Shown: positions 49,999-63,801 of the stretch, piece after piece
Numbering within the stretch: the first letter of the stretch is position 1
How the letters are laid out: the number at the start of each line of letters is the position of its first letter
NCBI GenBank assembly: GCA_951804945.1
Contig: OX638153.1
Location: forward strand, 37,758,001-37,822,000
DNA from: Podarcis cretensis
Taxonomy: Eukaryota
Length of the DNA: 64,000 nucleotides
Direction of reading: 5' to 3'
The notes under the pieces: model-generated
The model's database searches: none
Told to the model about the DNA's origin: nothing
The model's input: the letters and a program-made list of their open reading frames with translations, nothing else
Position numbers and translations under genes: made by a program

Positions 49999-50816
49999 TC
50001 ACGCACTTAGGTCCACTATGATATGTTTATAAATCACTGTATTCCCTTTAAAGCTTGAGGCAAAGAGAAAATCTTGCTTGTCGACAAAAACGTGTGTGAA
50101 AGATCTTGGAGCTTGTATATTTAATTCCTGAAACTTCACAAATTTGGCCTTTCCTGCCTCCCAGAAATAGACTTGAGTAAATGAATAATCACTTCCAAGA
50201 ATAGCATATTGATAATTCTTTATCTGAAGTGGCTGGAATACCATTGACCCTCTCGACGGCATCCTTTGTAAATCCAGAAATTTCGAACCTCCCCATTTCA
50301 TTACTTTGGAATCACCAATGAATCTTGTTAGACAAACGTAAATGTCATCTTTCACAGTGAAGTGCTTCACAGCATAAACATCCTCCATATCTGGAATGTC
50401 AACAGGGTCAACAAATTTGTTTGTTCCTTTGTTCCACTGATAGATGACAGGGTGCTGAGAACTACTGGACAGGATCAAGTGAGGTTTGCCAGCTATTTCA
50501 AGGTACTCCACATCAGTATCTCTATACCACTCATGCAAAGACTGGTCAGAATAAAATCCGATTCCATTCCATTTGTAAACAGTGGTGATTCCAGCTTTTG
50601 AACTGTCTGCAATTGCAAAATACCATTCTTTCGCCATCGTAAATATTTCAATGTCATTAGGCTTTCTGATTTTGAGAATCTCAATATCCTGAATTTTAGT
50701 GAATTTATTTGCATTAACGTCTCTTTTGTATATGTGGGAGCCGCCGAAGAGTTGGGCAACTATGATGTACAGGTTTCTCTCAACAATGACAGGCTTGCAT
50801 ACAACCACTGACGTCC
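49999..50816 (-). CDS. LGI1: LGI1 exon 8 (last coding exon, EPTP/EAR repeats), 818 nt
   Basis: Acceptor ttttttatccag. Encodes [33 protein letters not shown]...QAPRSFTHV...[21 protein letters not shown], matching the LGI1 C-terminus. Syntenic with SLC35G1. Confidence 0.97.
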
Positions 50817-50917
50817 CTGGATAAAAAAAGTATAAAAGAGATAAAAGATTGCTTCATCATCAACTGGCATTTAGATCAGGTAGCAACACAATGCCTATGG
50901 AGACGAATCATTCATAC

Positions 50918-51082
50918 CTGTAATGTTGTCAAAATTTCTAAAAGTCCCTTCCACATGGTCCCATTGAAGGAAGATACACTTTCCAGTAAAAGGCTGGGCA
51001 ATGACAACAAATTCATCATTCTCAAACGAGAATGTGTCCACCGATAGTGACTGATAAGGCAGCTTCCGAAAAACAACAAATT
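50918..51082 (-). CDS. LGI1: LGI1 exon 7 (165 nt)
   Basis: ttttgcag acceptor and gtatga donor. Encodes [56 protein letters not shown]; phases 1/1 fit the neighbouring exons. Confidence 0.95.
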
Positions 51083-51114
51083 CTGCAAAAAAGGCACACC
51101 AAAAGGAGACATGC

Positions 51115-51116
<2 letters not shown>

Positions 51117-51161
<45 letters not shown>
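51117..51161. repeat. (AAT)n microsatellite in LGI1 intron 6, about 35 nt from the exon 7 acceptor
   Basis: Direct reading. Confidence 0.95.
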
Positions 51162-51752
51162 TTAAAAAGGTTTCCAGACATAGGTGCCGGCTCCCTGGGG
51201 CCCTGGGTGCTCAAGCACCCACAAAATTCTCCATGAAGGGGCTGGGCACCAACAAATTTTCACTCCAGGGCCATGCACACTGCTTGGCACCCACAGCCCC
51301 AAGAACCCACAGTCACGGGGCCAAGCTGGCACTCCTGTTCCCAGACAGTGGTTACTTTCTAAAGTCCCTTATTTCTGTTAACCTGGGCAAAGTACCTAAC
51401 GCAGGAAGTTTCAATGCTGTTACTCAGTTCTTTACTGGAATGAATGGTTGTTGAGTGGAAGCAAAGCTTCATGGGTGTTTGGTTGTTGTTGTTGTTTTAA
51501 AAAAGCTCAAGAACTGAAGAATTGCCAGAGTAATCCAAAGTATCACCTGGGAGGAGCTGAGAGGGGGCAGTTAACACACAGTCTGGTGGACAAGGTGTCA
51601 CGCCAGCAGAAAACCTGCATACTAGCAGAACCATGTCCACATGCCAGTGGGCAGCTTAGCAGGCATGTGATATGTCCACCAACATACGGCCCAAAATGAG
51701 GTGTTCTAAAGGCAGGGAATGGGCATGGGGAGGGAAGGAATCATTCTAATTA

Positions 51753-52003
51753 CAGTGGTACCTTAGTTCCCGAACGGCGTAGTTGTCGAATAAATTGGCT
51801 CCCAAACACCGCAAACCTGGAAGTAGGTGTTCCGGTTTGCAAACATTTTTCAGAAGCCGAAGGTCTGACATGGCTTCTGCAACTTCTGCTTGAGTATAGG
51901 AAGCTTCTGCAGCCAATTGGAAGTCGTGCCTTGGTTTTCAAATGGTTTCTGGAGTCGAATGGACTCCCAGAGCGGATTAAGTTTGAGAACTGAGGTACTA
52001 CTG
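51753..52003. mobile_element. Tc1/mariner-type MITE (LGI1 intron 6)
   Basis: TA TSD and TIRs; related to the 10957 family. Confidence 0.85.
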
Positions 52004-52191
52004 TACATCCAGTCCCCTATTAGGTGCTAGGCATGCCCCAGAATCTAAAGGCGAGGCTTGAAGAGGGTTAGTAGAGCTGGGACACATGTCCCATGGGGTG
52101 TGCTATATATCCCCATTCTATAGCATATGGCGAGAGTGACTTGTAAAATATGCCATCAATGCAGTAAACGGAAGGCAGTTAGAACACTCAC

Positions 52192-52361
52192 CTGTAATAA
52201 TGCAATCAAATTCATTGGGAGAGAGGCTGTTGATTTTTCGCTTCTTATATTCCGGAGGACTTTCACAATAAATGTCCTCTACTGTTGCATTTGTTCTGCT
52301 CACCCACGCAACCAACCACTTTAATTTGCAGTCACATTTGAATGCATTACCTCTAAGGTCC
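52192..52361 (-). CDS. LGI1: LGI1 exon 6 (170 nt, LRRCT)
   Basis: Encodes [56 protein letters not shown]. Boundaries gacag and gtgagt. Confidence 0.96.
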
Positions 52362-53834
52362 CTGTCGGAAGGAGAAAGGAGGGGCGGGGGTTGTAGGTGC
52401 AATACAAGTGCTTTTGAAACATTCGTTTTCCATTTCTTACTTATCAATCAATCAACACTTTATTACGGTCATAGAGCAGCGTAAGGAGGGAGCATTTCTT
52501 ACTTATTTGCAGATATGATTGTAAGTGTGTTCAAATATTGCAACCCCCTTTTCATCTAGCTAAGTCTCACTGCTCTCAGTATGGGCTCTCATTTTATTCC
52601 ACTCATAACTATTATTTTATTTAATCCGTAAAATTTATATACAGCTTGATTGCAAAAAAAATATTCAAAGTGGAATAAAATAATTAGTTAAAAGAGTTAA
52701 AACATTCTCTATTATTGAAACCTGGGTGGGCTTGTCTAAACAAAAATGCTTTTAGCAGGTGCCGAAAATAGTATAGTGAAGGCATCTGCTTGATATCAAC
52801 AGGCAAGGAGTTCCAAAGTGTAGGTGCCACCACATTATAGATCCTAGTAAACGTAGCTTATACTCTGCAAGCACAGGGATGCTCCTGGCTGCCACTGAAA
52901 ATGTCCTCCCCTCTCCAAGCCTCGTCTCTACTGCAGGTATGCCTTGGTTTGCTCTCCACTAAAACACTGGTGACTATGCCCTCCTAATAGTGCAGCAATA
53001 AAACTGCCAGCACATTTGCAAAGCTAAGCAGGGTCTGGTCTCTTTTCAAATTGGATGGGGTACAGTGTAAGCCAACCTCACAATGCCTAGGACAGAAATG
53101 TCTCATACTGAATGTAACCGACGTGTAGAAAGGACTTTATTAACTGAAAACAGATGTTAATATGCATCTTTGTTATACATGAAAATCTTTTAATAAAAAT
53201 AAACTTTTTAAAAAATGGATGGAGGACTGCATGTTGGGATTCCGGCATTGCAGGGGTTTGGACTAGATGACCCTCAGGGTCCCTTCCAACTCTATATGAT
53301 TTTATTATTCTCTGACAAGGGAGGTTTGATGGCACACAGTCTACCCCATTTTTCAACTTTCCCTGTATATAATCAGGGTGTTTTCGACTGTGTCTCAAAT
53401 CTCAACTTTCGGCTGTAGAATTGCACAAACAATGTTAATACCCTTGACAGTGTTCCAATCACTGTCTTCATCAATTGGAAAGGTTTGGTTCAAAACAAAG
53501 TAATTTGCTTGCTATGCAGCCAACTGAACAATTAGGCAGCAGCCTCGTCCTTGCTAGTGCTTGCTGCGTTTCTATTTTGTTATACATTTTTGAAGCTTTA
53601 AAAAATTGGTAGGTTGGAGAGATGTTTGGTAACAGGCAAAATATATCTCCTAATGGAACCAGTTGGTGCCTGAATGTAAATTGACAATGCAACTGGCAGC
53701 AATGGTTTTAATGCATCTGTCACACCACGCCCACCTAATGAGTGGCCAGACCTGTACTTATTCTGTAATAATTACTAGTGAGCATTGATCTCTTGTCTTT
53801 CAAATCATAGTGTTAAAATGAAGAAGCTTTCTTA

Positions 53835-53924
<90 letters not shown>

Positions 53925-55029
53925 TTATTCTTAGCACAAGATCATCCTTTCATTCATTTCTAATCTGTTTCATCAAATACTTCTACGGCAAACAATTAAG
54001 GAGTGCTATGCAAATGCCAAGAAGTGTTTTTCTTTAAAGGATTATTTGTCAGAGCAACTTATTTAACAGTTCTTTGTTAAAATATCATGACTGCACTTCC
54101 AATTGCTCTCCAAAACAATTGTCGAATGTGAAGATTTCCCATGCCTTGTCCATATTTTGACAAACTCTGTGACTTTTTGCTTTCTTTTAATTGTTCTGAA
54201 GATGCAAAGTTATTTTATTTATCTTATTTAATATATCCCACCCCTCAACTGAGAAACAACAACAACCCAAAACAAGCCAGGGTGACTTGCACAATATTAA
54301 GCAAAAACCATCAACAACCAATGTCAAGAAAGAGTTTTCATTACATGCATAAATACAAATTTCTGCCCCCTTTCTGCACGCCAAGTGATATTCAACAAAT
54401 CAAAGCTGTGACTTTTAAAAAAATCCTTTTCTGTTGAAAACAAATTGTCTGAAGCATATTTAGTATTAAATGACTCTCTGCTGTCAAGAAGCCAATTTAT
54501 AATTATATTTTTAATAGCTGCTTGAATCATTATACTTCTATGTAAAAGTTCATTTGAATGAAACTAGTGTGTCAGGAACTAAATTAATCAGCTGCTGTAA
54601 GTTCACAGAACAGTTTAATAGGCATCATTATCACAAATTTATTTGCTGTGCTGTATAGGAATATAATGGCCCAGTTCAGACCTAATGCTAAACTATGGAT
54701 TAGTGTTACATGCACAAACTGTATTGAGCCTCAAACTCATGTGCTTCTCCCTCCTCTAACAGGGCATTAAAGAAGAGATCAGAAATCTCTATTTCTACTT
54801 TTAAATTAGCTAGAGTTACTCTTTATGTCTGAAATGAATGAAGATACTTGTTAAACTATAGTTTGTTTAATCTTGGCTTATTTGAACACGCCATAGTTTT
54901 AGTCAACGTAATAAGGAACCTCGTTTGCTGGAAGTGAAAGCTTCTGATCTCTTTGTTGTGACCATGGTGGAAAAGAAGGAAAGGAGGGGCCCAAGGATTC
55001 CACCCCCCGCTTAGTAGTTCATAGACAGG

Positions 55030-55439
55030 TGTGGTGGGATAATGAGCTGCTTGTGCGTTGAAGCTGGATCCCTCAGAGCTCACTCAGTCTAGTGAAGCCC
55101 TGCCTTGAGCGGAGCCCTTCAGCATGGCTCCGTCAGTCGCTGGTAGAATCTGACAGTGGGCGTTTGCGGAAACGTTTCCAACATAAAAGCTGTTTCACGG
55201 ACATGCGCCTCCTGGATTCCCTGCGTGACAGTTTCCGGCGGGGGGTGGGGGTCCTTAAAGGCTGTCCTGATACCTCCTCACTGTTCTCACTGGAAGTATC
55301 CCAGAGCCTCCCCTCCGACTCCCTTTCCTTTGGAGCTCCCGCACTCCCCCTACTGGTTCCCTCTTCTGCTGAAGAAGTGTCTCTCCTATTCTCCTGAAGC
55401 CTTCTCACCACCTGTGCTTCCGATGGCAGTTCCCTGACA
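55030..55439 (-). repeat. 3' LTR (410 bp)
   Basis: Direct repeat of 59831-60240, preceded in element sense by the polypurine tract. Confidence 0.97.
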
Positions 55440-58400
55440 TCCACCTCCCCCCCAGGGCCCCCTTCACCCCCTCCCGCCTCTTCTCTTACTGGCGGCGAGG
55501 ACGGAAATCCCTGGAAGGAACTCCCCTCATCCTCCGAGGATTCAAACACTTCTAACCACGACCTTCCGTCTCTTTCCCCCTCTTCCTCTCCTTCGTCGGA
55601 ATCTGTTTCCACCTCCACTCCCGACTCTGGGAACCCTTCAAACTCCCCTTCCTCATCTGTAGTCCCGAAGTGTTCCCTCCTAAATCTTGCCACTGGTTGT
55701 GGTTTCCTTGGGAAACGCCGATGAAACGTTTCTATTAAAATCTCGTCTTTGACTTCCTCTGCCGGTACCCATGTGTTTTCTGACTCTTCCTCCCCCTCCC
55801 ATTCTACCAAGTATTCCACCTGATTCCCCTTCCACCTGGAATCAATGATCCCTGCCACATCCATGTTGCGTTCTCTCTCTTCTATGACGGGTGTCCGGGT
55901 GACCTCCCTCTCATGTTCCCCCCACTCACATCCCTCTCTGTATGGCGACAGTAATGACCTGTGAAATACTGGGTGCAATTTCATGTGACTGGGCAATCGG
56001 AGTTTGAATGCTACTGGGTTGACCTGCTGTATGACCTCAAAGGGTCCCAACCGTTTGGGTCTCAATTTCTTACACCCTCCCTTGAACGGCAGTCCTTGGG
56101 TGGATAGCCACACCCGGTTACCCACCCTTATGGTTTCGCCTTCCCTCCTATTTCTGTCTGCTTGCTTCTTATATTCTTCTTTGGCTTTCTCTAAGTTGAG
56201 TTGGAGCTGACGGTGGATCGCTTCCATCTCTTCAACAAAATTTTCCGCTGCAGGTACACTCCACCTTCCCCCGCCCTCTCCTGGAAACGCCCGAGGATGA
56301 CACCCATAATTGGCTAGAAAGGGACTCATCCCTGTGGACACGTTCTCCGCGTTGTTGTAGGCAAATTCTGCCAGAGGTAACCAGTCTACCCAATCAGTTT
56401 CTCTGTCCTTTACATAACACCTCAGATATTGTTGCAAAACCCCGTTTGCCCTTTCTGCTTGCCCATTTGTTTCTGGGTGCCTGGCGGTGGAAAAACTTAC
56501 CTCCACATGCAACATGCTCATTAGTTTCCTCCAGAACCTAGAAGTAAATTGTTTTCCTCTGTCGCTCAAAACCCTCAAGGGGGCGCCATGCAACCTAAAA
56601 ATGTGCTCCACAAACAACCTTGCGGTTTCTTCCGCTGTCACTGCATGTGAACAAGCTATAAAGTGGCACATCTTAGTTAGTAGATCTACCACCACCATGA
56701 CCGCGGTTTTCCCTTTGGATCTCGGTAGATCGGTCATGAAGTCTATGGATACCATCTCCCATGGCCTTTCTGGGGTGGGTAAGGGTTCTAATAACCCTGC
56801 TGGCGCCAACCTCTCTCCCTTTGCTCTTTGGCACCTGTCACATCCCCTGACATACTCCCGCACGTCTTCCCGCACCTTGGGCCACCAAAACTCCCTGGTA
56901 ACCAACCACATGGTCTTGTGCTGCCCGAAGTGCCCCGCCGTGGGGCTGTCATGCAACTGTTTAAGCACCCGCCCTCTTAGTTCCCCACCTGGTATGTAGA
57001 GCGCCCCTTTGTAATATAGTTTTCCGTTCTTTTCCTCAAACCCCCCTGCGTTCTCACCTGTCTCCCTGAGTTCCCTAAGTTTTTCTTGGGCATATTCATC
57101 GTTTTCAATACCCTCTACCAGTTCTCTTTGCCCCACCAATGCCGCCCCACAAACCCAGTGGTCCTCTGAGATGATATGTCTTTCTTCCGCCCCTCCTTCC
57201 CCCTCCAAGTACTCAGGTTTTCTGGAGAGAGCGTCCGCCCTGACATTCTCAGCCCCTGGCACGTAGCGAATTTCAAAATTGAACTTGGAGAACTCTTGCG
57301 CCCATCTTACTTGTCTCTGGTTCAATACTCGGGCTGTTCTCCAGTATTCTAGATTTTTGTGGTCTGTCCGCACTTGAACCTTGTGTTGCGCCCCAATCAA
57401 CAGGTGTCTCCATCTCTTGAACGCTTCGTGGACGGCGAGTAATTCTCTGTCGTACACTGTATAATTCCTCTCAGACTTGTTCAATTTCCTCGAGAAGAAG
57501 GCACACGGTCTCCATTCCGACACCGCTTGCACCTTGCTAGGATCCATGGCCAGCCCCTTGTCCGACAACCGGTACCCAAGGAATTCCACCTCCCTGGTGT
57601 GAAACTGACACTTCTCCAGTTTCACCCACAGCTGGTTTTCTTGCAGTTTGCTCAGTACCTCTCGTACATCTCGCACATGCTGCTCTTCATCCTCTGAGTA
57701 CACCAGTACATCGTCCAAGAACGCAGCGCAGTTCTTGTACAGCAATGGTCCTAGTACGTGATTCATGAATGATTGAAATACTGCTGATCCCGCCTGGAGG
57801 CCGAAAGGCATAACGCAGTACTCAAATGCCCCCAAGGGGGTGAACATAGTGGTTTTCCACTCATCTCCCTTTCTCATACGTATCAGGTTATACGCCCCCC
57901 TCAGGTCCAGCTTGGTAAAAATCTTCCCTTTTCTCACCCGGGTCAGAATGTCATCGATTCTGGGCATAGGGAAAGTCACGGGTTCGGACACTGCGTTTAG
58001 GGCCCTGAAATCCACAATTAATCTCGGCTTGTCCGAGTTTTTTTTGTCCACAAAGAACACTGGGCTACCCCCCACCGCTCGTGACTCCCTGATGAACCCA
58101 CGCTTGAGGTTTTTGTCAATAAACTCCCTTAGCTCCTGCATCTCCCTGTCAGACATTGCATACACCTTGCCCACTGGCAATTGCGCTCCTGGGAGTAAGT
58201 TGATTTGGCAGTCAAAGGGTCTGTGCGGGGGTAGTTTATCTGCTTCCCTTTCGCTGAAGACGTCGGCAAAATCTGCATATTGTCGTGGTACCCTACCTTG
58301 ATCCATTGCTTCTATCTTTGCTAATGTGGCCTGAGTGCCTACTTGGCCCCCTTTTTCTGTGCAGTGTCCCATACAATGTGCTGACCCAAAGGAAACCACT

Positions 58401-58837
58401 CTCTGATGCCATCCCACAAGCGGATCATGCAGCGCTAGCCAGCTCATCCCCAAAATGATGAGCGCTCCTCCCAACGTGGCTATATTAAACGCTATCCGTT
58501 CCGTGTGTCTTGCCACCCTCATTGTCATGGGGACAGTCTGCTGGTCTACTTCTCCCCCCAACAGCGCCCTCCCATCAATCGTGGTCACCTGCAGGGGATT
58601 TTTTAAAGGAATGGTCTGTATCTGATGTGCGGCTGCAAACTCCTTACTCATAAAGTTGCAGGAGCTGCCTGAGTCTAATAGCGCCTTCACTTTTAGTGGG
58701 TGTCCGTTTGCCAGCTCCAGCAATACCTCTATTACAAGAGCTGGTCTTGGGGGTTCTGGCGTGGGCACATTTACTGTTCCTTGGCCTGGCTGCTGTGCCC
58801 CGTCGGTGGCAGCCAGGCGTTGGCTTTTACTTGCTCC
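55133..58837 (-). CDS. pol: pol polyprotein (PR-RT-partial RNase H-IN-chromodomain), -1 frame relative to gag
   Basis: LLDSGS protease; KLDLRGAY, MPFGL and FLDD in RT; H-x6-H...CDRC zinc finger; IDF, SDRG and downstream E as integrase DDE; LGPF motif; chromodomain IIDSRWKGNQVEYLVEWEG...NTWVP. The frame is open from the TAA at 58838-58840. Confidence 0.93.
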   Translation of the reverse strand, partial: GASKSQRLAATDGAQQPGQGTVNVPTPEPPRPALVIEVLLELANGHPLKVKALLDSGSSCNFMSKEFAAAHQIQTIPLKNPLQVTTIDGRALLGGEVDQQTVPMTMRVARHTERIAFNIATLGGALIILGMSWLALHDPLVGWHQRVVSFGSAHCMGHCTEKGGQVGTQATLAKIEAMDQGRVPRQYADFADVFSEREADKLPPHRPFDCQINLLPGAQLPVGKVYAMSDREMQELREFIDKNLKRGFIRESRAVGGSPVFFVDKKNSDKPRLIVDFRALNAVSEPVTFPMPRIDDILTRVRKGKIFTKLDLRGAYNLIRMRKGDEWKTTMFTPLGAFEYCVMPFGLQAGSAVFQSFMNHVLGPLLYKNCAAFLDDVLVYSEDEEQHVRDVREVLSKLQENQLWVKLEKCQFHTREVEFLGYRLSDKGLAMDPSKVQAVSEWRPCAFFSRKLNKSERNYTVYDRELLAVHEAFKRWRHLLIGAQHKVQVRTDHKNLEYWRTARVLNQRQVRWAQEFSKFNFEIRYVPGAENVRADALSRKPEYLEGEGGAEERHIISEDHWVCGAALVGQRELVEGIENDEYAQEKLRELRETGENAGGFEEKNGKLYYKGALYIPGGELRGRVLKQLHDSPTAGHFGQHKTMWLVTREFWWPKVREDVREYVRGCDRCQRAKGERLAPAGLLEPLPTPERPWEMVSIDFMTDLPRSKGKTAVMVVVDLLTKMCHFIACSHAVTAEETARLFVEHIFRLHGAPLRVLSDRGKQFTSRFWRKLMSMLHVEVSFSTARHPETNGQAERANGVLQQYLRCYVKDRETDWVDWLPLAEFAYNNAENVSTGMSPFLANYGCHPRAFPGEGGGRWSVPAAENFVEEMEAIHRQLQLNLEKAKEEYKKQADRNRREGETIRVGNRVWLSTQGLPFKGGCKKLRPKRLGPFEVIQQVNPVAFKLRLPSHMKLHPVFHRSLLSPYREGCEWGEHEREVTRTPVIEERERNMDVAGIIDSRWKGNQVEYLVEWEGEEESENTWVPAEEVKDEILIETFHRRFPRKPQPVARFRREHFGTTDEEGEFEGFPESGVEVETDSDEGEEEGERDGRSWLEVFESSEDEGSSFQGFPSSPPVREEAGGGEGGPGGEVDVRELPSEAQVVRRLQENRRDTSSAEEGTSRGSAGAPKERESEGRLWDTSSENSEEVSGQPLRTPTPRRKLSRRESRRRMSVKQLLCWKRFRKRPLSDSTSD
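55440..55453 (-). other. Polypurine tract (GGGGGGGAGGTGGA)
   Basis: Purine run immediately 5' of the 3' LTR TG in element sense. Confidence 0.85.
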
Positions 58838-59785
58838 TTAGCTCCTTCTCCCTCCTCCCCAACAGCTCCCGCCATTCCTTGCCATTCCTTTCTTTGCGGA
58901 CAAACTCTGGCAAAATGACCTGGCTGTTGGCAGAGAAAACATTTCTTGGCGCCTTTTCCCTCCTTCTTCCGCCCTTCACTGGGGTTTGAAATTGCGCGCG
59001 CGCGCGCTGTTCCGATTTCCATCGGCTCTGCTGGCAGAGAAGGCTGCTCTGGCATCTCTGGAATGCGGAAATCCCTCCAACGCTCCCCTTTCCCTTCCCG
59101 CTTCTCCAAGGCTCTGGCCTCCTGGCGTGATCCTATGGCCAGCGCTGATTTAGTCAGATGGTCCATAGACTCCGCCCTGGGCCCCCGGGAAAGTTCGTCT
59201 TACCACTGCCGAAGATAGTCCTTCTTCGAACAGCATTTGTATCGGTTCCGCTGACAAATCCCAACCTAATTTATGGATCAACATGGTGAACTCAGTCCAG
59301 TACTCACGGACAGATCGGTTCCCTTGTTTACACGCCATTAACTGCCTGCGCGCCACTCCCTGCTCAATCTCGCTGGAAAACATCAGATCCATGGTGCGAA
59401 AAAACTTCCTTGTGTCCCTTAGGGCTTCATTATTGGCTGCCATTAGTGGCCTCACCCAATGTTTTGCCCCGCCTTCGAGATGGCCAATCACATAAGCAAC
59501 CCTCGATTCCTCATCAGGAAAATCATCAAACTGCAGATTGAGGGCATATTGCATCTCTGTCCTGAAGGCTTGATAATTCCTGGGATCACCCCCAAACTTC
59601 TGCACCAGTCCAGGCACTTTCCTCGAGAGCTGGGCGGCTTTCCCCTTTTCTGCATCATGAGCCCTCCTCTCCTCCAGCCTCGCCGTTTGCAGAGCTAACT
59701 GTACCTCCAACATCCTGTACCTTTCTTCCAGGCTAGGACCGGCTGCAGCTGCTCCCCCATCTCCGGCTCCGGCTGGGTTGCTCAT
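58771..59785 (-). pseudogene. gag: gag (capsid plus CCHC zinc knuckle), disrupted by a net +1 frameshift near 59200
   Basis: ORF 59150-59785 has PEG10/RTL-like capsid motifs (KFGGDP..., HLEGGAKHW, KQGNRSVREYWTEF, FEEGLS). ORF 58771-59166 has CFLCQQPGHFARVC. The total span of 1015 nt is 3n+1. Confidence 0.88.
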
Positions 59786-59830
59786 GATGCCTCTCTTTGC
59801 ACAAGCTGCTTTCAGGGACTGTCAGATTGC

Positions 59831-60240
59831 TGTGGTGGGATAATGAGCTGCTTGTGCGTTGAAGCTGGATCCCTCAGAGCTCACTCAGTCTAGTGAAGCC
59901 CTGCCTTGAGCGGAGCCCTTCAGCATGGCTCCGTCAGTCGCTGGTAGAATCTGACAGTGGGCGTTTGCGGAAACGTTTCCAACATAAAAGCTGTTTCACG
60001 GACATGCGCCTCCTGGATTCCCTGCGTGACAGTTTCCGGCGGGGGGTGGGGGTCCTTAAAGGCTGTCCTGATACCTCCTCACTGTTCTCACTGGAAGTAT
60101 CCCAGAGCCTCCCCTCCGACTCCCTTTCCTTTGGAGCTCCCGCACTCCCCCTACTGGTTCCCTCTTCTGCTGAAGAAGTGTCTCTCCTATTCTCCTGAAG
60201 CCTTCTCACCACCTGTGCTTCCGATGGCAGTTCCCTGACA
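59831..60240 (-). repeat. 5' LTR (410 bp)
   Basis: Direct repeat of 55030-55439. No differences seen by eye, and the ORF track gives identical translations for both copies. Confidence 0.97.
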
Positions 60241-61030
60241 ACAGGGATGGAGAATATGTGGCCTTCCAGATGTTTTTCAACTACAATGTCCTTTGTCCCA
60301 GCTGATTGGCTATGCTGGCTGGGGCTGATGAGAACTGGAGGCCAAAAACATCTGGAGGACCACAGGATTACTGATTACATCTATATACATTGTACTTGAA
60401 CATGATATATCTGATAATATATTTATGGGATGAAGCAGGGATTGAACTGACCACAAGTCCTGTTCCATAATCAAATGTCATCCCACTGGAAATGTGATTC
60501 CCCCTTCTCAATACTGTCTTTTTTAGATCTTTTAATATTTTTTTTTTCACTTGAACATTTGAAAGAAGATGAGGCATCAGGATATGCCTATTTTTTTAGC
60601 TTCTTGGACTGTGCCAATTAGTTTCATTGACCAATATGAGCCTAATTTTATGATGTTTACACACACACAGTATTATTATTGCTGGTTTTAAATCATACAC
60701 TACCCTGTGATCATTGAATGTATGTACGTGATGTAGTTATAAATTTAACAACTACAATAAAAATTTCATTTTATGATAGTATATATTGTTTCACTGTTCC
60801 ATTTTCTGTGGATTGTTTTTATGTACACCACTTAGAAATGTGAATAACTAAGCGGTATATAAATGTATTAAATAAATAATATTGTTTTCATATCAAAATT
60901 TTCCATTATTTTATATTATTTATGCATGATTAAAATAAATTAAAAAAAAGACTTTGAACTACATATGCCAGGGGTGGGGTTGGGGGTGGTAGTTCTAGTG
61001 CATTCCCATATTCTGAAAGTAACCTTATTT

Positions 61031-62730
61031 AGGAACAATCGGACTAAATTATCAACCCGTGAGTAATATGGAAATTGGAACCTTTTATAAAAATTTTGCT
61101 GGATTAGGAACGAGCGGGGAAGGGTTAAAAAGGAAGTCCACCCCCCCCCTTAGTAAACAATCTAAAGCAAAGGACCTGTCAGCTAAGGTCGAGAGAATCT
61201 TTTTTTGCTTTTTAGTAAAAGATTTTAACTGCACGATTTTGACATTGTAAGAAGTTTTGCTGGAGGATTAAGGATTAATTTGGGGAGCTGAAGTTCACCC
61301 CCTCAGAACCGGGAGCGTCCCGTGAGAAAGCCTGTTGATGAAATACTGAAGAGTTTTGACAGCTGTCAAGTTAGCTGTCAAGATGGAAAGGAAACTTTGT
61401 TTCTGTTGCTTCTGCTGGTTTTACGTGTTACAATTTATTGGAAAAAAAGGAAGGACTGATACAAATAACTTGACTTTTGGACTTGAGCCGAAAGGAATAT
61501 CTAAGGAACTAAAATCCCCCTAGAGGGGTTTAGTGACATTACAGGAATGGCTGGAGAAGGGAAAATCCAAGCTGAACTGGATAGAGCATTTGTTCTCTTG
61601 GGAAAGTTACAAGGCCAATTCAATGTTTTGGCTATTAACGCTACAGCTCTAAGTTTGACAGTAAACAACATTGTCCAACCTGATAAGGATTTGAAACAGG
61701 AAGCTAATTCAACTGGAAAAATAAAGGAAACTGAAAGTTTTGACAATATGGAAAAGGGGACATATGCTGCCCCTGAAGAAGAGGAAGGAGGAGCTGAAAC
61801 TTTGCAGACGCCAAAGGAGAGCTGCAATTTGAAGCCTGATATGACAACAAAAAAGGAAAATAAAAATTTGATGGGGAAGGCCTGGCCTGAACTGGAGATT
61901 GAAAGGAGATCTGAAGACCTGAGGATTACAAATTGGTTTAAGATGAAAGTTGGAGCCCTGGGGACAATTGGACTTGAAAGGAATATGAAACAAAAGTTGG
62001 AGTACCCCATAGGCTTTGCTTTTAAATTTGGAGGTCTGGCTGGCAGAAATATGGATCCTGTCGGGTCGGTGCCTCTCCGAGATCTGGGGTTTAACATTAA
62101 GGACTATCAAAAAGACCGGCACAGAGGAACTGAGAGAGACTTAAAAGCCTCGGACGTGAGATCTCCAGGCTAGATAGTTTATAGAGACTGATGGACATCT
62201 GTTGGGGACTAACCGGGAAAAGGGTGGGTAGAGTTTGGGAATCCAAAGGGTATATAGATATAATTTGTTCTGTTTTTTATTTTTTGTTTGACTATTTTTA
62301 TGGAAACTGGGAAAATCGTGGAAGGGAAATTTTGGTCGACTTTAGGAAAAAGGTTTAAGATTAATTAATGAGATATAAGTATTGATGCATAAAATTGGGA
62401 TAAGTTAAAATTGGTTTTTAAATTAAATAAAAATAAGGCCTGCAAAGATAATATTGAGGAAATGGAAGAAAGAAGAAAAGTAAAATAATATCATGTTAGA
62501 ATAAATTATTAAGTTAAAGTGGAGAAATATGTTAAGGATTTGCTGTGCTGATAACTTAAATTGGAATACTAGAAGGGGAGGTGTGAGGAGGTCTGAGAAA
62601 TAAGGTAAAAGAAAATAAGTAATTGAAATTTTATGTGTTTTTAATTCTTTTGGATTTTTGTTTTTTTGTTAATTTTTGTTTTTGTTTTATATGTTTCTGG
62701 AAAATCCCAATAAATATTCATTAAAAAAAA
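61031..62730 (+). mobile_element. Non-autonomous poly(A) retroposon (probably L1-mobilised), 1.7 kb
   Basis: 17-bp TSD TGAAAGTAACCTTATTT (61014-61030 and 62731-62747), AATAAA at 62709-62714 followed by an A8 tail. No RT or endonuclease recognisable. Confidence 0.85.
61547..62173 (+). CDS. Orphan 208-aa ORF inside the retroposon (heptad-like N-terminus, acidic middle)
   Basis: Uninterrupted ATG-to-TAG ORF with good Kozak context (GGAATGG), in the same orientation as the poly(A) tail. No family recognised. Confidence 0.45.
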   Translation: MAGEGKIQAELDRAFVLLGKLQGQFNVLAINATALSLTVNNIVQPDKDLKQEANSTGKIKETESFDNMEKGTYAAPEEEEGGAETLQTPKESCNLKPDMTTKKENKNLMGKAWPELEIERRSEDLRITNWFKMKVGALGTIGLERNMKQKLEYPIGFAFKFGGLAGRNMDPVGSVPLRDLGFNIKDYQKDRHRGTERDLKASDVRSPG

Positions 62731-63559
62731 TGAAAGTAACCTTATTTGGAGAAAGCATTTTTCACGTATAATTTACAGTATAAATAAATTTGGTTTCTGC
62801 TAATGGTGGTAATTTGACTGTGAAATATTGTTTTGTACTAGCACTTCTCCCTTTAGATTCAATCCAAAAGATATGAACCCCATGCACAACACTGACACCC
62901 CACGCTTGTTGATTTGCACAATTTTCATTTTAGGGTGAAGTTTTAAAAGTATTTCTGTGGCTAAGTTGCTGGTGGATGGAGAAGAAGAAAATGTGCTATT
63001 TTATTGTGTGTTATTCACTTTTCTCCGAATTGCAAACCATGAAGCATGCCAAGAGATTGATAGTTTCATTCATGTATGCAAAAGACCTTATGCATAAACT
63101 TTAATGCCTGGATCACACTGGCTGAGATCCAAAGAGTTACTTTAGGATTACCCAAGGATTTGGGCATACCCAGTGGAACTGTTTAATTTCCCCCACTGCA
63201 TGGCACACCTCCACAATATCACAAATTGCTTTTGAACCTTCTTTAAATTTAAAATCTTGCCATGAAGGGCAATTCAGGGGGTGAAACAAAAGTCAAGCTC
63301 AAAGCTTCCTTGTATATGCAAAGCAGTTTCTTGATTCCTTGGATCCAAGCTGCAGATACTAACACTACTCACAGAACAGGATTTGAATTATTAAATGATA
63401 CATTAGGCAATTGCCTGTTTAATTGTATAATCAATTGATTAATGGCAAAACAGGTAATCAGCCCCCGAAACCTTTAGCTGGTTAACATCTTCAAAAGAAA
63501 TATGTCATTGACATAGTTCTGTAAAGATGGCAAGGAATAAAATGAACACTTTTACTTAC

Positions 63560-63631
63560 AGGTGAATTAAAGATTTCAGTCCTCGGAAGGAAGTGTTTGA
63601 AAGAGACTTGATGTTGTTGTTCTCTATAAAC
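63560..63631 (-). CDS. LGI1: LGI1 exon 4 (72 nt LRR)
   Basis: ttgcag and gtaagt boundaries. Encodes FIENNNIKSLSNTSFRGLKSLIHL. Confidence 0.95.
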
Positions 63632-63729
63632 CTGCAATGGGTCATAAAGGCAGCTTGGTCAAAGGAATTTCTTTATCTCAAGCACACAACCACTCTCAAG
63701 AAATCTTTCACATTATTTTTTCAACTCAC

Positions 63730-63801
63730 AAATATTCTAGATGAGGAAGGCCCATGAAGGCATCACCGCTAATGACATCAAATGTATTTGCTGTAAATAA
63801 C
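63730..63801 (-). CDS. LGI1: LGI1 exon 3 (72 nt LRR); exons 1-2 lie outside the window
   Basis: atacag and gtgagt boundaries. Encodes LFTANTFDVISGDAFMGLPHLEYL, followed by a 98-nt intron to exon 4. Confidence 0.95.

Follow-up and report, generated by a model that had tools for sequence, protein, structure and literature searches.

The 64,000-nucleotide stretch of Podarcis cretensis DNA analyzed here (the window) carries a Ty3/gypsy chromovirus copy that is recent and defective. Its primer-binding site can pair with a segment of the element's own long terminal repeat (LTR), and the family to which it belongs likely primes reverse transcription in the manner of Tf1, using the 5' terminus of the element RNA (probability about 0.86). 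The site pairs with the LTR, lies at a fixed offset of 2 nt from the LTR end and has kept its pairing through changes on both sides. Self-priming by the RNA 5' end has been demonstrated by experiment for Tf1 of Schizosaccharomyces pombe (PMC7175516) and is described, in the portions available of the sources, as common among Tf1/sushi elements, those of fungi and of vertebrates included (PMC4600332, PMC6317226, 10.1101/2022.12.06.519325); the available portion of PMC3601003 adds little on self-priming. In a lizard chromovirus, self-priming is the expected mechanism for a member of this group, for which it has already been proposed, vertebrates included. The work to cite for the vertebrate Tf1/sushi elements (sushi-ichi, Amn; the V-clade of GyDB) is reportedly that of Butler et al. 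from 2001.

The element runs on the minus strand from 60240 to 55030 and is bounded by two 410-bp LTRs, which are identical at 410 of 410 positions and have TG...CA ends (Table 1). These LTRs, a target-site duplication, a polypurine tract (PPT) and the domain order PR-RT-RH-IN are those of Ty3/gypsy elements; the closest solved relative of the reverse transcriptase (RT) is the Ty3 RT (E 1e-44), and the chromodomain found with Pfam (PF00385, E 8e-10) after SH3_Tf2-1 at the integrase C terminus is that of a chromovirus. Among the best 120 of 679 RT matches, the nearest lizard ones were four Podarcis muralis proteins with 87-92% identity, in line with the initial annotation, which had called the element a lizard one; the other relatives among these 120, at ~40-70%, belong to lizard, snake, amphibian (frog, salamander), fish and fungal elements, the named entries being vertebrates, fungi and one protist and many entries being unnamed. 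The genome contains 474 matches to the leader pattern of the family, and the LTR pairs are identical in 17 of 20 close copies, which agrees with its earlier description as very young.

In the window copy gag is frameshifted near 59200, and the start of RNase H has been lost to a deletion near 57520; both defects are unique to it among 21 copies (20 close copies and the window), and sister elements contain a complete RNase H domain. In the close copies the gag and pol frames (element positions 420 and 1403) overlap in a -1 relation, which is usual for non-yeast members of the Tf1/sushi group; no classic slippery heptamer was recognized by eye. The element has inserted into an intron of an LGI-family gene (49999-63760, minus strand), in the same orientation as the gene. 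A 222-codon open frame on the plus strand (61505-62173), which gave no Pfam match, is probably a fragment of another repeat.

Table 1. Features of the element and of its host gene in the window
Feature	Position	Strand	Remark
LRR-like exons of LGI-family gene	near 52200, 53880, 63590, 63760	-	
EPTP exon of LGI-family gene	49999-50853	-	
Target-site duplication CCTGT, 5' side	60241..60245	-	
5' LTR	59831..60240	-	410 bp, TG...CA, identical to 3' LTR
TATA-like TTTTATG	59983..59989	-	-31 to -25 from predicted start 59958
Initiator-like CCCACT	59956..59961	-	A at 59958; motif position, putative role; initiator consensus is BBCA+1BW
Putative self-primer ACTGTCAGATT	59948..59958	-	predicted first 11 nt of RNA
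U5 arm GCACAAGCAGC	59847..59857	-	predicted U5-leader stem
Spacer GC	59829..59830	-	2 nt, LTR end to primer-binding site
Primer-binding site AATCTGACAGT	59818..59828	-	without TGG
Leader arm GCAGCTTGTGC	59799..59809	-	predicted U5-leader stem
gag	58771..59785	-	Retrotrans_gag, Ty3 capsid-like, zinc knuckle; frameshift near 59200
pol frame	55133..58837	-	protease, RT, partial RNase H, integrase, SH3_Tf2-1, chromodomain, tail through PPT and U3
PPT	55440..55453	-	adjoins 3' LTR
3' LTR	55030..55439	-	first 307 nt = last ~100 Pol codons, stop 55135-55133
Second copy of 11-mer	55157-55147	-	inside 3' LTR
Target-site duplication CCTGT, 3' side	55025..55029	-	

The primer-binding site AATCTGACAGT (59828-59818) and the LTR segment ACTGTCAGATT (59958-59948) are exact 11-nt complements on the minus strand, and these 11 nt are the longest exact match between the 45 nt after the LTR and the LTR itself. 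The initial annotation had reported both this complement, bounded at 11 nt, and the lack of a TGG-type site, and both were reproduced, the site starting 2 nt (GC) past the 5' LTR with letters other than TGG. The chance of an 11-nt complement is ~5e-4 (analytical estimate, five offsets against a 400-nt LTR), and a comparable LTR complement was found at 0 of 4345 interior positions of the element. Regarding the TTTTATG that had been proposed as a weak TATA-like box 25-30 nt upstream of the RNA start, the position (-31 to -25) stands, yet the motif is weak evidence, because it is variable in relatives (CTCTTATG, CTCTTACG, CCCTTATG, CTTCTATG) and falls within conserved Pol codons (L-L-C).

Within the window's clade, pairing over 11 of 11 nt was found in 70 of 83 distinct insertions, with five primer/site variants (primer middle GTCA in 48, GTCG in 11, GACG in 6, GGCA in 3 and GACA in 2). 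Deviations at one pair occur in 12 of the 83 (3 G-U, 9 mismatches), CpG decay being plausible for six of these and none of the 12 being fixed in a subfamily; the one further insertion has a disrupted LTR. The search pattern for these copies fixed the first three bases of the site, and the sample is biased, with 30 loci closest to the window and 20 hand-picked for variant sites. In a 48-row alignment (which omits the disrupted L177, as does the tree, and in which the identical window row stands in for L146) the primer/site helix is 98.3% paired, and two pairs are changed on both sides. The covariation of the two-helix structure was 0.135, compared with 0.060 in shuffled alignments (0 of 500 reached the observed value) and at most 0.046 in slid controls, a score with which kinship among sequences can by itself beat shuffles. 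Kinship was handled with a tree built without the primer and site columns, on which primer position 5 changed twice, the site matching each time, and primer position 7 yielded about three concordant and no discordant phylogenetically independent pairs (p 0.25), too few for significance. Locus L151, with both sides changed in the G/C subfamily, was rejected as a compensatory event, as two CpG decays could explain it. Regarding the comparison of relatives suggested earlier, changes on both sides of the pairing were present in the alignment and among the variants, and loss of complementarity, which had been named as evidence to the contrary, was seen in none of the sampled subfamilies. At locus L131 (G000:C17:14807343) an 11-nt near-duplication covers the end of the LTR and the first part of the primer-binding site, possibly the product of a slip in priming or strand transfer.

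The strongest evidence for the predicted self-priming is the comparison between groups, in which the letters of the site are unrelated, the geometry is constant and the site is always complementary to the element's own LTR. The distant sister groups A, B and C were found via a capsid-profile search and 20 full-length stretches. Group A sites (TTGCTCCCAC or TTGCTCCCGC) match their own LTR over 10 nt in six of nine loci, the remaining ones being two with indels in the site and one without a full LTR pair; an 11-nt match was present in one of two group B loci, and a match of at least 10 nt in all 38 scorable of 40 group C copies (L206 and L209 unscored). The sites of these three groups start 2 nt after the CA end of the LTR, with a GT spacer, and in all of them, as in the window's clade, an AT-rich box lies ~30 nt above the LTR partner. 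In group C (L194-L233) base 11 of the site, opposite the nucleotide with which the RNA is predicted to begin, is a C or A rather than T, leaving it unpaired, in 37 of 38 copies; the primer of this group may be 10 nt long, or the capped first base may not be copied.

Tf1 requires three duplexes around its primer-binding site, according to the available text of 10.1101/2022.12.06.519325. Judged from the aligned copies, the central one is strongly supported in the lizard family and the U5-leader duplex moderately. In the predicted U5-leader stem, formed by 59857-59847 and 59809-59799, pairing reaches 91.4%, and four of its pairs are changed on both sides, three of these through a single subfamily; in single sequences the stem is not above chance (52 of 300 shuffles for the window copy). 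The third duplex of the Tf1 "pretzel" was not found across the clade at thresholds of at least 5 bp and 85% pairing, and the folding energy of the whole leader is ordinary in comparison with shuffles (z -1.0). Two candidates were rejected because they did not turn up in the clade-wide duplex scan: pairing of the leader with the first bases of the LTR, and a GGGAT/ATCCC duplex upstream of the site.

If the family follows Tf1, transcription would start at A59958, nucleotides 1-11 of the RNA would fold back onto the primer-binding site, RNase H would cut after nucleotide 11, and RT would then proceed from the 3' end so created across the 2-nt spacer and on into U5, with the U5-leader stem helping to keep the site accessible. 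Copying of the primer into the site of the progeny would by itself carry changes in the LTR over to the site. Tf1 cDNA carries the copied site at its 3' end (available text of PMC11042837); if the same applies here, both templating and selection may have contributed to the covariation, and each of them points to the 11-mer as primer. With its incomplete RNase H and frameshifted gag, the window copy would depend for self-priming on another copy to provide RT/RNase H. Regarding the family, the earlier proposal of self-priming is supported by the both-sided changes, the retained pairing and a partial tRNA screen, the putative start and cleavage being modelled on Tf1.

The pairing might be real and selected and yet do another job, such as leader closure, joining of RNA ends via the 11-mer of the 3' LTR, or strand transfer, with some other molecule as primer. 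A second copy of the 11-mer would indeed be present in the RNA (Table 1), covariation shows pairing or templating and not purpose, and the start site and primer are predicted rather than observed. This reading is nevertheless improbable when set against a paired stretch that begins in four groups, with unrelated letters, always exactly 2 nt past the LTR end, where a primer 3' end would be placed, against an LTR partner ~30 nt below an AT-rich box, and against the absence of any visible alternative primer site.

The remaining alternatives are less probable still. A transcript ending at the 11-mer of the 3' LTR could snap back and prime from its 3' end without RNase H cleavage, which would suit both the identity of the 11-mer in the two LTRs and the absence of a canonical poly(A) signal from R/U5 in 8 of 8 representatives, an absence that also speaks against priming by the 5' end; such an RNA, however, would be a non-stop message, as the Pol stop lies beyond the 11-mer, U5 and the repeated end for strand transfer would presumably be hard to regenerate from it, and the precedent of Tf1 uses the 5' end (PMC7175516, in part), so that we regard this route as very unlikely. 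The same low standing is given to a host tRNA, tRNA half or other small RNA as primer, the LTR match being incidental. Half-tRNA priming without TGG exists in copia elements (PMC6317226, available text), and the tRNA screen spans 26 distinct genes for 8 amino acids, a partial set; within this set no tRNA complementary to the site was found, as expected from the initial annotation, and the best 3'-anchored match of the clade primers was 4 nt. The site is also without TGG, and five site variants in the clade and at least four sequences in the sister groups each track their own LTR, which one host RNA cannot explain.

The Pol frame of the element continues across the PPT and U3 and ends at a stop codon 12 nt past the 11-mer of the 3' LTR. 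In 78 of 80 insertions the length of U3 is divisible by three, whereas R+U5 varies by single steps, and stops within U3 were found in 5 of 80 insertions in the Pol frame versus 68 and 80 of 80 in the other frames (L161 and L177 left out of this count). The dN/dS of the U3-encoded Pol tail between subfamilies was 0.19-0.38 (nine pairs listed), and the Pol tail through U3 and primer is under purifying selection. Both primer positions that vary belong to a single S/T/A codon, as its first and third bases; coding may explain the constancy of other LTR positions, but not that the site follows the primer. In group C Pol likewise reads through U3 (open in 37 of 38 copies). The window's clade, group B and group C have in common a tail that passes from acidic to basic and closes with an L-L-x(1,2)-W motif. 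At the group A locus L068 the Pol tail also enters the 3' LTR and contains RRSARL, which we take to be a nucleosome acidic-patch-binding motif; its stop lies just upstream of a GATAAA box. Integrase tails encoded in the LTR have a precedent in the plant CRM group A chromoviruses (PMC3059260, in the portion available). CRM elements are centromeric and primed by tRNA-Met; in the lizard family, unlike CRM, the LTR-encoded tail follows the chromodomain and overlaps the predicted self-primer.

Group C, a young, putatively self-priming sister family with a 784-bp LTR, is a candidate telomere-targeting LTR retrotransposon. Two telomere units in one phase precede the LTR start at 249 junctions, in both orientations; all 20 telomeric junctions that were fetched belong to group C, and none was found for the window's family. 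The first 100 of 740 group C LTR starts yielded 43 host junctions with a pattern that drops some non-telomeric junctions, and 18 of these 43 were telomeric (15 exact, 3 degenerate); perfect TTAGGG tracts amount to ~0.36 Mb or 0.024% of the assembly (60,024 overlapping matches). Examples from G000 (L071, L072, L194-L213; C1:34.9 kb, C3:121.84-121.95 Mb, C13:57.58-57.65 Mb) lie at chromosome ends and in interstitial clusters. All 15 telomeric copies with both ends resolved show a 5-bp duplication GTTAG/CTAAC. The target-site duplications of the window's clade and group C lean to S-W-W-W-S (CATAC, GTATG, GTATC), a pattern that the telomeric GTTAG fits and that can explain the fixed telomeric phase, but not the enrichment; the concentration of group C in telomeric repeats may be due to retention bias. 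On a tree of 33 of the 40 group C loci (those 6-7 kb long), 14 telomeric and 19 interstitial copies are intermixed (11 changes versus 10.9 +/- 1.4 when shuffled), and every pair of telomeric copies is at least 6 differences apart, which favours independent insertion over array amplification as the probable origin of the telomeric copies. The chromodomain of group C was missed by Pfam, and a chromodomain-like stretch is visible by eye. Regarding group B, many copies with the 377-aa gag frames of groups B and C (L038, L055, L070) lie within ~1 Mb of chromosome ends, which suggests a subtelomeric bias of group B; the two group B loci that were read (L069, L070) both had no telomeric flanks.

In the available portions of PMC10088271 and PMC4700185, elements in telomere repeats are described as non-LTR or Penelope-like, and Ty5 is described as going to silent chromatin near telomeres. 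No vertebrate LTR element in telomere repeats appeared among the publications listed in literature searches, and Repbase or Dfam may already contain the lizard families. Whether the lizard elements combine a selected, LTR-encoded coding tail with true and previously undescribed targeting of telomere repeats by group C is, in our estimate, evenly balanced. If they do, a single LTR stretch would serve as promoter and self-primer and also encode the final ~100-240 codons of integrase, and group C would populate the TTAGGG arrays at most chromosome ends through separate integration events. That the LTR-encoded tail is itself the targeting part, steering insertion together with the chromodomain, is a guess that we hold to be rather doubtful.

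With Tf1/Tf2 the lizard family shares the 11-nt complement of site and LTR, the lack of a tRNA site (as far as the partial screen goes), the chromodomain integrase and an RT with RNase H (PMC7175516, available text), a site that complements the own LTR instead of a tRNA being characteristic of the Tf1/sushi group; it differs in that only two of the three duplexes are supported by sequence comparison. Tf1 consists of a single ORF (10.1101/2022.12.06.519325, available text), whereas the lizard family has a gag with a CCHC knuckle and a separate -1 pol frame. With the vertebrate Tf1/sushi elements it has in common that it is a vertebrate chromovirus with a separate -1 pol frame and predicted self-priming; it differs from these in being lacertid, with copies so many and so young (the 474 leader matches) that a covariation test is possible, and in having Pol run through U3 and primer.

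Self-priming is proven in fission yeast and, in the sources available, only predicted for the vertebrate relatives. The lizard genome adds comparative support, with both-sided changes within a clade and different primers between groups, and hundreds of young copies whose natural RNA and cDNA could reveal the start site, the cut and the primer. The 2001 proposal thereby becomes testable in an amniote, an outcome that would not surprise a specialist; an LTR serving as promoter, primer and coding tail at once could do so, as could a sister family concentrated in telomeric repeats. The telomeric sister family, if true, bears on the construction of lizard telomeres and on integrase targeting.
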